NCBI GenBank assembly: GCA_903869825.1
Contig: CAIQAL010000028.1
Span: 1,315-65,314 of the forward strand
Direction: 5' to 3'
Length of the DNA stretch: 64,000 bases
DNA from: an uncultured bacterium
Lineage (GTDB): Bacteria > Patescibacteriota > Minisyncoccia > Phycocordibacterales > UBA9973
The position numbers and the translations under genes were made by a program. This document shows, piece by piece, positions 7,113-42,603 of the stretch; position 1 is the stretch's first letter, and each line of letters opens with the position of its first letter. The notes under the pieces are model-generated. The model saw only the letters and a program-made list of their open reading frames with translations, was not told the DNA's origin and searched no databases.

Positions 7113-7141
7113 TTGACTTCAATTTTACGAAAGCATAGAAT
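7113..7141 (+). promoter_or_regulatory. sigma70-like promoter (TTGACT -17 nt- TAGAAT) driving the riboswitch leader
   Basis: ttgact at 7113-7118, 17-nt spacer, tagaat at 7136-7141. Confidence 0.35.
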
Positions 7142-7147
7142 AAAGAA

Positions 7148-7322
7148 GTTCGTATAGTAATTTATATAAGTGATTGGGGAAACTGGTTTGATTCCAGTAC
7201 AGTGCCGCTACGGTAAGCCCTCTTGGGGGACGAGTCCGAATACCAATCATTTAAGACAATCCCGAGCAGGAAACTTCTTTTTTGGAAGCCCAAAATTCTG
7301 CCGGAAGCAGAATTTTTTTTAT
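7148..7322 (+). ncRNA. cobalamin (AdoCbl) riboswitch-like leader with intrinsic-terminator expression platform
   Basis: GGGGAAACTGGTTTGATTCCAG...GCCGCTACGGTAAG resembles conserved cobalamin core (GGGAAnnCGGTGAAAnTCC...CGCnACnGTnA); AGTCCGAATACC resembles B12 box (AGYCMGGAGACC); ends in hairpin aattctgc-cggaa-gcagaatt + T8 (7294-7320) 4 nt before ATG. Confidence 0.55.
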
Positions 7323-11547: not shown

Positions 11548-12135
11548 TTATGCTAACGGTTTAAACAATTCTTCAAGTTCTTTTCTCTTTTCTGAGTTGT
11601 ACTTTACTTCAAGAAATTTTATCATCGGTTCGGGGGAATAAAAATTTTCGGCTGTCACAGTATCTAAAAGTTTATCAAAATTCACAGGATAAAGTTTTAT
11701 TTTTTCTCCGGCATCGGGATTTATTTCTCCAACTTTTCTCAAGCCTTTCGCGATAAAAGTATACACGGCCCAATCAACTTTATTTATTGGCTGCTGAGCA
11801 TCTAATAAAATAAATTTTTCGGCTTCATAACCCGTTTCTTCAAGCATTTCCCTCTTCGCAGCAGAAAGAACATCTTCTCCTTCTTCTATCCGACCTCCAG
11901 GCGTATCAAAAGAGGGTATTCTGCCAGGCTGTTCTTGTTCCAGTAAGAGAATCCGTCCATCTGGGAGAATCGGAAATATCACAACGGTATCTGGTCTTTT
12001 GGCTTTTTCAAAAATTGTTTTAGTCCCGTTGAAAAGATTTTGTTCCCATTGATATACGTCAAAAAGTACCCCCTTAAATACCTTTTTGGCATTTTCTGGT
12101 ATCGGTTGTTTTGATTTTGGCCGTTCTATTTTCAT
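11548..12135 (-). CDS. NUDIX hydrolase (ADP-ribose pyrophosphatase-like)
   Basis: Nudix box GGRIEEGEDVLSAAKREMLEETG. Confidence 0.75.
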   Translation of the reverse strand: MKIERPKSKQPIPENAKKVFKGVLFDVYQWEQNLFNGTKTIFEKAKRPDTVVIFPILPDGRILLLEQEQPGRIPSFDTPGGRIEEGEDVLSAAKREMLEETGYEAEKFILLDAQQPINKVDWAVYTFIAKGLRKVGEINPDAGEKIKLYPVNFDKLLDTVTAENFYSPEPMIKFLEVKYNSEKRKELEELFKPLA

Positions 12136-40019: not shown

Positions 40020-40907
40020 TTATAACTTTTTTTCGGCTTTTAGAAACAAATCAAGGTCACCTGAGAGAACTGCATCAACGTTTGAGGTTTCAGCATCGGT
40101 TCGATGATCTTTCACCATCTTGTAGGGATGAAGCACATATGAGCGAATTTGACTCCCCCATTCTATCTCGGTGTTACCACTTTTTTTCATACTTTCTTCT
40201 ATCATCTTTTTTTCTTGTTCCGCCCGCCTAAAAATTTTGGCTCGTAAAATAGACAAAGCTTGTTCCCGGTTTTGTTCTTGAGAACGCTGTCCAGAAGCGT
40301 GAACTGATATCCCTGTCGGGATATGCACTATTCGAACGGCAGTTTCTCTTTTGTTGACATTCTGCCCGCCAGGACCTCCGGCTCGGGCAAATTCAATTTT
40401 CAAATCTCCTTCCGGGATTATAAAATCACGCTCTTCCAACTTGGAAAATTTCGGCAAAACCTCAACCAATGAAAAAGAAGTATGCCGCAACTTTTTTGCG
40501 TTGAAGGGTGAAATTCGGACTAACCGATGCACCCCGGATTCGTTTTTCAAAATACCATAAGCATTTTTACCTTCCACTTCAAATGAAACATTCTTATACC
40601 CATTCTGTTCGTTTTTATGTTCATTAATAAATGAAATTCCCCACCCTTTCCGATCGGCATATTTCAAATATATCTCGAGTAATATTCGAGAGAAATCTTC
40701 CGCGTCATCCCCCCCGGCTCCGGAGATAATCGTTATTATTGCATTACCTTTATCATATTTCCCCAAGCCTGCTTTTTTATTTTTTAATTCTTCAAGTTCC
40801 CTAATGGTGTTTTTCGCTTTTTCTTTATTCAGCCAAAAATCTGATCCCGTCATTTCTTGTTCGAGCCGAGCGATACTCTCTTCTATTTTATTTTTGTCTT
40901 CATCCAT
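40020..40907 (-). CDS. prfB: peptide chain release factor 2 (N-terminally short form, no frameshift site)
   Basis: SPF tripeptide (RISPFNAKK), GGQ motif ([24 protein letters not shown]), 295 aa. Confidence 0.85.
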
Positions 40908-40909
40908 GA

Positions 40910-40981
40910 GCCACCTCTCGGGATTGAACCGAGGACCCCGTCTTTACGAAAGACGTGCTCTACCAACTGAGCTAAGGTGGC
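40910..40981 (-). tRNA. tRNA-Thr (anticodon CGU), no encoded CCA
   Basis: minus-strand cloverleaf GCCACCU...AGGUGGC, D-arm GCUCAGUUGGUAGAGC, anticodon stem CGUCU/AGACG loop UUCGUAA, T-arm GGUUCAAUCC. Confidence 0.8.
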
Positions 40982-42099: not shown

Positions 42100-42166
42100 A
42101 AAAACTAATCGTCAACTTTACTATTTTTTAAAAAAACAGTTCATGCTTGTATTTATTTTTTGTCTG

Positions 42167-42443
42167 AGCCGTTGATCGGGATTGAACCGATGACCTCGAT
42201 ATTCGTTTACACCTCCATTTCGCCCAAAATGGGCTTATAGAAGGACTAGACTGTATCTTACGCATATCTTTCGATGAAGCGTCCCTTGTCAGTCGTTCGG
42301 GCGGAAGTACATTTCTGCGCTCTCGCCACGGTCTTGTCCTTTTCAGGATATTAACCGTAATTCGGGTTTCACAAGCAAGTTTCCTCGCAAGCGGGCTATT
42401 AACGATAACCAATATCGTGCTCTACCAACTGAGCTACAACGGC
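42167..42443 (-). tRNA. tRNA-Thr (anticodon GGU) interrupted by ~204-nt group-I-like intron between positions 36/37
   Basis: 5' exon (42408-42443) GCCGUUGUAGCUCAGUUGGUAGAGCACGAUAUUGGU; 3' exon (42167-42203) AAUAUCGAGGUCAUCGGUUCAAUCCCGAUCAACGGCU; exons join to canonical cloverleaf with loop UUGGUAA; intron ends in G, 5' exon ends in U, contains AAGAUA...CAGUCUAGUCC element like group I J8/7-P7. Confidence 0.55.
42204..42407 (-). mobile_element. group-I-like self-splicing intron in tRNA anticodon loop (no ORF)
   Basis: 204 nt between tRNA halves; U(-1)/terminal G; GAAA-loop helices (GCGAGGAAACUUGC), P7-like CAGUCUAGUCC; size similar to bacterial tRNA IC3 introns. Confidence 0.5.
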
Positions 42444-42565
42444 ATATTTTTTTCTAATGAACCGGTGACCCAGGTAATTCCTAATGCGGTCATACCTCCT
42501 CACCCTAAATTATTTTACCCTTACTTTACAAACATATTCTCTCTGCTCAAGGTAGACCCACTCTT

Positions 42566-42603
42566 TACCAATATCGTGCTCTACCAACTGAGCTACAACG
42601 GCT
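42566..42603 (-). repeat. 38-nt direct duplicate of tRNA-Thr(GGU) 5' half (positions 1-38) carrying intron-less anticodon loop UUGGUAA
   Basis: accaatatcgtgctctaccaactgagctacaacggc identical to 42408-42443; followed (minus strand) by AA then unrelated sequence; no matching 3' half. Confidence 0.6.

Follow-up and report, generated by a model that had tools for sequence, protein, structure and literature searches.

A compact intron of probable group I type in a tRNA-Thr(GGU) gene from a Patescibacteria contig

We analysed a window of 64,000 nucleotides (nt) of contig CAIQAL010000028.1 (assembly GCA_903869825.1), whose minus strand carries at 42167..42443 a tRNA-Thr(GGU) gene interrupted within the anticodon loop. 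The 5' exon (42443-42408, minus strand; GCCGUUGUAGCUCAGUUGGUAGAGCACGAUAUUGGU) comprises tRNA nt 1-36, i.e., the 5' strand of the acceptor stem, the D arm, the 5' strand of the anticodon stem and U32 U33 G34 G35 U36. The insert, a group I-type intron of 204 nt (42407-42204, minus strand), begins with UAUCG directly after U36 and ends with AAACG, its putative omega-G being at 42204. The 3' exon (42203-42167, minus strand; AAUAUCGAGGUCAUCGGUUCAAUCCCGAUCAACGGCU) holds nt 37-73: A37 A38, the 3' strand of the anticodon stem (UAUCG), the variable loop, the T arm, the 3' strand of the acceptor stem and the discriminator U. All features of the gene described below lie on this strand, and positions in the intron are numbered from 42407 (nt 1).

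The gene goes undetected by ARAGORN with default settings and by the Rfam tRNA model. The intron mode of ARAGORN gives one interrupted tRNA in the 64 kb (42166-42443, with an intron of 204 nt), which it labels Pro(GGG) after placing the boundary one base to the left, leaving a G at -1 and a C at the end of the intron. Moving this boundary by one base puts U36 at -1 and makes G204 the last base of the intron. When spliced in silico at these positions, the two exons form a canonical cloverleaf with the loop UUGGUAA, and the product is called tRNA-Thr(GGT). The pairs G1-C72 and C2-G71 and the GGU anticodon of the spliced molecule agree with threonine identity. An earlier note, made from the sequence of the window, had proposed this anatomy, including the length of the insert, its position after nt 36, the U before it and the G that ends it, and the cloverleaf of the joined halves. 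The anatomy is borne out by ARAGORN, by the spliced sequence, by the same boundaries in 95 loci and by the pairings at the two splice sites described below.

This arrangement is not a chance match. The folding energy of the pre-tRNA has a z-score of -3.99 and is more stable than all of 200 shuffled sequences, a 19-mer of the intron core (CGAACGACTGACAAGGGAC) occurs once in the window when none is expected, and the arrangement recurs in 95 independent loci. These relatives (numbered with the prefix L) come from a scan of metagenomes with the core 19-mer, which gave 101 loci, and from a separate scan of genomes anchored on the tRNA, which gave three Paceibacterota loci with inserts of 191-194 nt; a match of the latter scan in Alteromonas (L003) was false and was discarded. 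All 95 loci with enough flanking sequence are tRNA-Thr(GGU) genes with the insert at 36/37, and the other 10, mostly at contig ends, were left unparsed. The U at -1 and the terminal G were imposed by the locus parser, and the AA that opens the 3' exon is also found in 95/95. That the inserts are confined to a single tRNA and a single site is not a consequence of the search. Together the loci provide 82 distinct introns of 179-264 nt, none of which contains an open reading frame (ORF) or is long enough for an endonuclease gene. In the intron mode of ARAGORN, the relatives are labelled Arg(GCG) with an intron at 34/35, His or Pro.

We aligned the 82 distinct introns with their exons (alignment A1) and obtained a common structure with RNAalifold, to which we added the P3 pseudoknot and a P9.0 of two base pairs (bp), features that lie beyond what the program can predict. 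RNAalifold alone recovers the anticodon stem of the exons, P1, P2, P4, P5, P6, P7, P8 and P9. Standard pairs occupy 96.1% of the cells of the structure, against 81.3% in shuffled alignments and 28-44% when the partners are slid by 1-3 columns. Compensatory double changes affect 28 of the 49 pairs, and the covariation score of 0.431 (0.151 in shuffles) is exceeded by 0 of 500 shuffles. The helices follow the canonical order of group I introns, with P3, P4 and P7 paired in 100%, 100% and 99.8% of the cells, respectively. The earlier note had pointed to GAAA-capped helices and to an AAGAUA-containing element reminiscent of the group I core, and had suggested folding the insert to locate P1-P9. 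The capped helices are P2, P5, P6 and P8, the element (AAGAUACAGUCUAGUCC) lies at 42259-42243, and P1-P9, including the P3/P7 core, can be placed in the alignment.

The P1 hairpin (42394..42410) joins exon G34 G35 U36 to intron C14 C13 G12, with G-C in 82/82, G-C in 82/82 and U·G in 81/81 sequences, and the U36·G12 wobble is the pair of the 5' splice site. P1 is extended by U1A2U3/A9U10A11, the first pair of which covaries (UA 28, AU 27, GU 23, GC 3). At the other end, the 5' strand of P9.0 (G162 U163; 42245..42246) covaries with A202 C203, which precede the terminal G204 (42204..42206), the first pair being AU in 37, GC in 35 and GU in 5 sequences and the second CG in 36, UA in 33 and UG in 12. 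No other independent evidence supports the 3' splice site as strongly as this covariation; the boundary rule was also checked in 95 loci. The pairs of the exon anticodon stem also covary between the 5' and 3' exons over the 82 sequences.

The helices between these sites differ in how much they vary. P2 (intron 15-38; 42370..42393) shows double changes in 6/6 pairs under a GAAA tetraloop that is nearly invariant in the family. P4 (50-55/75-80) lies with the A-rich J4/5 and J5/4 and with P5 (60-63/68-71, GAAA loop) at 42328..42358; P5 has double changes in 3/4 pairs and P4 is invariant, although it is outside the search pattern. P6 (81-108; 42300..42327) is capped by GAAA in the window and shows double changes in 5/5 pairs, e.g., from GC to UA or CG. 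P8 (126-148; 42260..42282), also with a GAAA cap in the window, has double changes in 4/6 pairs, and P9 (164-168/192-196; 42212..42244), which encloses an inner P9a hairpin, in 4/5. The 5' strand of P3 (C42-C44; 42364..42366) pairs as CG in 82, CG in 82 and CG in 74 sequences (UG in the other 8), with no compensatory change, and its 3' strand (G123-G125; 42283..42285), which forms the pseudoknot with P7, is inside the search 19-mer and thus invariant by construction. J6/7 (CGAAC) and the 5' strand of P7 (GACUG), at intron 109-118 (42290..42299), match the consensus AGACUA of RF00028, the Rfam group I intron model, and the invariance of both is partly by construction; G114 in P7 is the predicted guanosine-binding base. 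J8/7 (AAGAUA) and the 3' strand of P7 (CAGUC), at intron 149-159 (42249..42259), are outside the search pattern, and P7 (GACUG 114-118 with CAGUC 155-159) is paired in 99.8% of the cells. At the level of sequence, the J8/7-P7 segment AAGAUACAGUC differs from the RF00028 consensus AAGAUAUAGUC at 1/11 positions.

Three other registers were considered and rejected. P1 could be drawn as exon AUUGGU with intron GUUAAU; the family instead conserves the GGU/GCC pairing and its covarying extension. A P7 of the form GACU-GAC/GUC-U-AGUC would use positions 162-163, which vary there without compensation and covary instead with the dinucleotide that precedes the terminal G, and we therefore assign them to P9.0. 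A P3 between CUUGU 33-37 and ACAAG 119-123 would have its 5' strand in the hypervariable P2.

The intron family can be linked to accepted group I introns. We built a covariance model, R1, from the Thr introns; it matches the window once (42196-42415, 192.9 bits). R1 also matches two tRNA-Asp introns end to end, in L032 (18.2 bits, E 3e-4) and L024 (17.6 bits, E 5e-4), and these are its closest cross-matches. RF00028 itself scores the same two introns at 51-53 bits. In the R1 alignment with the tRNA-Asp introns, the segments J3/4-P4, P4', P7, P3', J8/7-P7' and P9 line up. The consensus elements AAUUGCGG, CCGCAGCC, AGACUA and AAGAUAUAGUC of RF00028 correspond to GAAUUACGG, ACCGUGGC, CGACUG and AAGAUACAGUC of the window. 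Homology to introns recognised by Rfam, the comparative structure and a published precedent all point the same way, and the group I identity that the earlier note had put forward stands.

The precedent is a class of tRNA-Thr(GGU) introns at 36/37, listed in three complete Patescibacteria genomes and termed "divergent group I introns" (Nakagawa et al. 2026, mSystems, PMC13011429 Table 1). These published introns escape RF00028, and two of the three are called Arg(GCG) 34/35 by ARAGORN (PMC13011429); they were found by tFind with gpI_bact_tRNA.cm (PMC13011429; Williams 2020, bioRxiv 10.1101/2020.01.27.920355). In the window the host tRNA is likewise Thr(GGU) and the insert lies between nt 36 and 37, and the two sets share the phylum, the class Paceibacteria and a similar length. 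Both are invisible to RF00028, and both show the shifted ARAGORN boundary and the wrong isotype, including Arg(GCG) 34/35. The likeness is one of host tRNA, site, length and tool behaviour, and no tested feature differs. The host is, judging from sequence, a Patescibacteria of Paceibacteria-like affiliation: the best named homologs of a neighbouring major facilitator superfamily (MFS) protein belong to Paceibacterota, Nomurabacteria and Minisyncoccia, and the genome loci L002 and L004 are Candidatus Paceibacterota. The window intron is therefore a new member of a class already described in the 2020 preprint and the 2026 paper; the published work on the Thr class comes without a fold or covariation analysis.

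Comparison with other tRNA introns helps to place the class. The Asp and Asn introns of Patescibacteria occur in the same phylum and sometimes on the same contigs (L024, L032, L072, L098, L102), and have in common with the Thr introns the core motifs GAAU(U/A)NCGG in J3/4-P4, GACUR/YAGUC in P7 and AAGAUA in J8/7. They differ in tRNA and site (35/36 versus 36/37 for Thr) and in their RF00028 scores (43-53 bits versus nothing for Thr). Some Asn introns carry HNH endonuclease genes, unlike the 82 Thr introns. The Asn introns also have an extra hairpin between P7 and P3', where the window intron has ACAA alone. In the Michel-Westhof classification, subgroup IA reportedly has extra helices, P7.1 and P7.2, at this place. 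Such helices are absent from the Thr family, in which P7 and P3' are joined by just ACAA (intron 119-122) in 82/82 sequences. In the published tree, the Thr introns nevertheless sit on long branches inside the IA clade formed by tRNA introns of Patescibacteria, which also holds the Asn and Asp introns, and no tRNA intron of the phylum was assigned to subgroup IC (PMC13011429). The IC3 introns of Azoarcus tRNA-Ile and Anabaena/Nostoc tRNA-Leu(UAA) share the location in the anticodon loop, a length of about 200-250 nt, the lack of an ORF, the U·G pair, the terminal G and tetraloop-capped peripheral helices, and differ in host tRNA and site. The earlier note had likened the insert to the Azoarcus intron; this comparison is good for size only, and the published classification puts the tRNA introns of Patescibacteria outside subgroup IC.

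Our preferred reading is thus that the tRNA-Thr(GGU) gene of a Patescibacteria host is interrupted at 36/37 by a compact, ORF-less group I intron of 204 nt, to which we give a probability of about 0.88. The boundaries, the conserved and covarying fold, the exclusivity for tRNA-Thr(GGU) at 36/37 and the homology to group I introns found by Rfam are established. Several observations weigh against this reading. P3 has 3 bp, compared with about 7 bp in the RF00028 model. P3, P4 and P7 are constant throughout the sample and hence fit the fold while being unproven by covariation; the 5' strand of P7, J6/7 and the 3' strand of P3 were fixed by the search pattern, although the invariance of P4 and of the 3' strand of P7 was not. 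The cross-matches of R1 are weak and their E-values roughly calibrated. Splicing tests in the phylum cover the Asn and Asp introns only (PMC13011429). Finally, RF00028 finds no match, whether run at its gathering threshold, on 901 nt with E<=10 or on the isolated intron with E<=10.

This last result is better understood by looking at the homologous loci. Across 14 of them RF00028 finds tRNA-Asp and tRNA-Met introns and no Thr intron: it scores the former at 43-76 bits while ignoring the Thr introns next to them on the same contigs. The Asp and Met matches are an internal positive control for the model, and because it finds these introns yet skips their neighbours, the Thr class must be regarded as divergent. 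RF00028 was built mostly from eukaryotic and organellar introns. With this control, and with the same miss in the literature, we do not count the negative result against group I. The earlier note had proposed an RF00028 search of the insert, with a missing hit as grounds for refutation; such a test would wrongly reject a real case, since it falls in a known blind spot of the model. As a separate observation, the further group I introns on these contigs (L024:956-1187, L032:8783-9010 and 11676-11874, L072:3291-3586, L098:923-1168, L102:709-1122) sit in tRNA-Asp(GUC) and tRNA-Met(CAU). Their presence on the same Patescibacteria contigs as Thr introns implies that there are several interrupted tRNA genes per genome.

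Other explanations were weighed against the same evidence. The intron could derive from group I and, having a reduced core, be removed in vivo only with the help of a protein such as a maturase or chaperone. The short P3, the lack of extra peripheral domains, a length at the small end for group I and the failure of RF00028 to score it would fit this idea, and so would the restriction of splicing data in the phylum to Asn and Asp introns. However, none of the 82 introns (179-264 nt) contains an ORF and their conserved GAAA loops suggest a self-contained tertiary stabilisation; P8 of the family consensus also resembles a GAAA-receptor motif. Related small introns of Patescibacteria, namely Asn and Asp introns, also self-splice in vitro (PMC13011429). 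We regard dependence on a helper protein as unlikely. It is far less probable still that the tRNA is dead and that the insertion, be it the decayed form of a mobile element or a structured RNA of unrelated origin, is never removed. The lack of an Rfam intron match would be expected of such an insertion, and the partial tRNA copies near these genes (see below) would indicate a rearrangement-prone locus. A dead gene is hard to reconcile with the perfect cloverleaf of the exons, whose anticodon stems covary over 82 variants, with the constancy of position, U at -1 and terminal G in 95/95 loci, or with the covariation of P9.0 with the two bases just before that G. Moreover, the 135 intron-less tRNAs in the 618 kb of homologous loci include no Thr(GGT).

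The possibility that the insert belongs to another type of intron, whether group II or the archaeal-style bulge-helix-bulge type that a protein endonuclease cuts, is close to negligible. Bulge-helix-bulge introns share the location in the anticodon loop, yet the insert lies at 36/37 and not at the canonical 37/38, no bulge-helix-bulge motif is seen at the junctions, and bacteria are not known to splice in this way. The isolated intron does match Intron_gpII, a trivial hit of 22 nt over the P2 hairpin alone (E 6.8), and domains V and VI of group II introns are not seen. Both types are at odds with the P1-P9 fold with its U·G pair and terminal G, and with the matches of R1 to group I introns. 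Furthermore, group II introns have not been found in Patescibacteria (PMC13011429).

For the group I intron, we infer catalysis and autonomous splicing from the standard chemistry of these elements. The precursor would be transcribed, probably from a promoter-like site at 42657-42629, and the intron would fold into P1-P9, with the internal guide GCC (12-14) paired to exon G34 G35 U36, so that the 5' splice site carries the U36·G12 wobble. The first attack, after U36, would come from a free guanosine that occupies the G114-C159 pair in P7. The pairing of P9.0 (G162 U163/A202 C203) would bring the terminal G204 into the guanosine site, and the 3'-OH of U36 would attack after G204, joining GGU to AA and releasing a normal tRNA-Thr(GGU). 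The anticodon stem of the exons is intact and covaries. The Anabaena pre-tRNA likewise retains this stem, which is reported to be required there for splicing (Zaug et al. 1993, as cited in PMC13011429).

A second element lies directly upstream of the gene, at 42444..42602 of the minus strand. It forms a direct repeat with the gene at a spacing of 159 nt and has homologs in 8 other loci. Its first part (42602-42565), whose start lies 159 nt upstream of the gene, repeats tRNA nt 1-38 exactly, down to GGUAA, which is the junction without the intron; we refer to it as a ghost exon. About 95 nt further on comes the T-arm-like sequence GGTCACCGGTTCA, which ends 14 nt before the real gene. Within the element, an insert of about 75 nt lies between the copies of a direct repeat (AAACAGGTC). 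The homologs precede the gene in L037, L046, L055, L070, L087, L007/L033 and L063. In most of these, the 5' half of the ghost is identical or nearly so to the 5' exon of its own locus, although the exons differ between loci, which indicates concerted evolution. The match between ghost and exon stops at the intron insertion site; in our reading, gene conversion would homogenise the ghost as far as the site at which homology is broken by the intron. The 5' half of the ghost is decayed in L046, L070 and L087, where the spacer motifs persist, and the ghost of L070 retains an anticodon stem of its own (GUUUG/CAAAC). 'Ghost exons' called by ARAGORN have been mentioned before (Williams 2020, bioRxiv 10.1101/2020.01.27.920355).

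Upstream of the ghost by 26 nt is the promoter-like sequence TTGAAA-N17-TAGTAT (42657-42629, minus strand), identified by its match to the consensus. The scanned stretch showed no other minus-strand promoter-like site upstream of the gene, and none between the ghost and the real tRNA. In loci lacking a ghost, such a site is found 14-37 nt upstream of the real tRNA. These positions suggest that the ghost may be transcribed as a leader of the pre-tRNA. We would read the element as the decayed remnant of an intron-less paralog whose promoter was kept and which would now be co-transcribed as a leader. We also considered a role for the ghost in splicing, either by offering an alternative 5' splice site or by mimicking the ligated exons (GGU|AA) and so modulating the reaction. 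The UGGU of the ghost can indeed pair with the GCC guide of the intron, and splicing of the ghost to the 3' exon, if true, would yield the same mature tRNA; we nevertheless find this role very unlikely.

Nothing found in the ghost shows it to be a structured RNA. Its small ORF lacks conservation and changes frame from locus to locus; the hammerhead-like motif CUGAUGA occurs once, in L055, and is not shared by the other loci; and RNAalifold on the ghost elements gives only a weak, non-covarying GACC/GGUC hairpin. Other partial copies of the tRNA 5' end occur in the homologous loci. Pseudo-copies of 22 nt (GCCGTTGTAGCTGTTTTGGTAG) lie at -37 to -74 in L004 (3782-3892), L002/L045, L083, L075 and L096, and L004 has three tandem 37-nt repeats upstream of its tRNA-Thr gene. 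Further partial 5' copies, interrupted by hairpins, are present in L006, L044, L024 and L012.

In another sub-lineage, an additional type of element, absent from the window, lies immediately downstream of the tRNA-Thr gene that bears the intron. It measures 125-230 nt and occurs at L009:2720-2881, L036:1511-1705, L052:5386-5562, L056:1328-1504, L073:1482-1675, L069:2773-3137 (two tandem units), L015:657-927, L078:715-880 and L105:730-894. Its 3' end is a copy of the last 17-20 nt of the tRNA (the 3' strands of the T and acceptor stems and the discriminator), and its 5' end complements that copy to form a terminal helix resembling the acceptor and T stems around 2-3 hairpins, one of which covaries. 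The element has no convincing family in Rfam; a match to beta_tmRNA (18.9 bits against a gathering threshold of 84) was treated as noise. It could be a small RNA that mimics a tRNA or the scar of an attachment site. If the ghost did play the unlikely role in splicing considered above, tRNA mimics, upstream here and downstream elsewhere, would be recurrent companions of the intron-bearing tRNA-Thr in Patescibacteria.

The window contains only tRNA-Gln(CTG) and tRNA-Thr(CGT) besides the interrupted tRNA. The latter, an intron-less tRNA-Thr(CGU) at 40908-40981 of the minus strand, lies about 1.2 kb downstream of the interrupted gene, and the two are neighbours in 42 homologous loci. The earlier note had suggested that the interrupted gene would be the only route to a functional tRNA-Thr(GGU) in this genome; the lack of an intron-less tRNA-Thr(GGU) among the 135 tRNAs in 618 kb of homologous loci is consistent with this, and genomes in which copies with and without an intron share one anticodon are reported to be rare (PMC13011429). 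The listed ATG of a release factor 2-like ORF (40020-40907, minus strand, 295 aa as listed) follows the 3' end of tRNA-Thr(CGU) without any spacer. Elsewhere in the window, the plus strand has an Rfam match to the cobalamin riboswitch at 7130-7265 (33.7 bits against a gathering threshold of 31.5), with a much shortened central region; such a riboswitch is unexpected in a reduced genome of the candidate phyla radiation (CPR).

Within its class, which has been described only recently, the interrupted gene is biologically an ordinary case. The analysis adds 82 distinct members from metagenomes to the three published examples. It also brings an explicit P1-P9.0 fold with covariation, a link by covariance model to group I introns that Rfam recognises, and the ghost exons. 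This set could seed an Rfam family or a better detector of tRNA introns. Standard annotation fails at this locus: plain ARAGORN and Rfam miss the gene, and the intron mode of ARAGORN assigns it the wrong amino acid. Because annotation misses it, the genome would seem to be without tRNA-Thr(GGU), which would distort estimates of completeness and decoding for the CPR, a point also made by Nakagawa et al. 2026 (PMC13011429).

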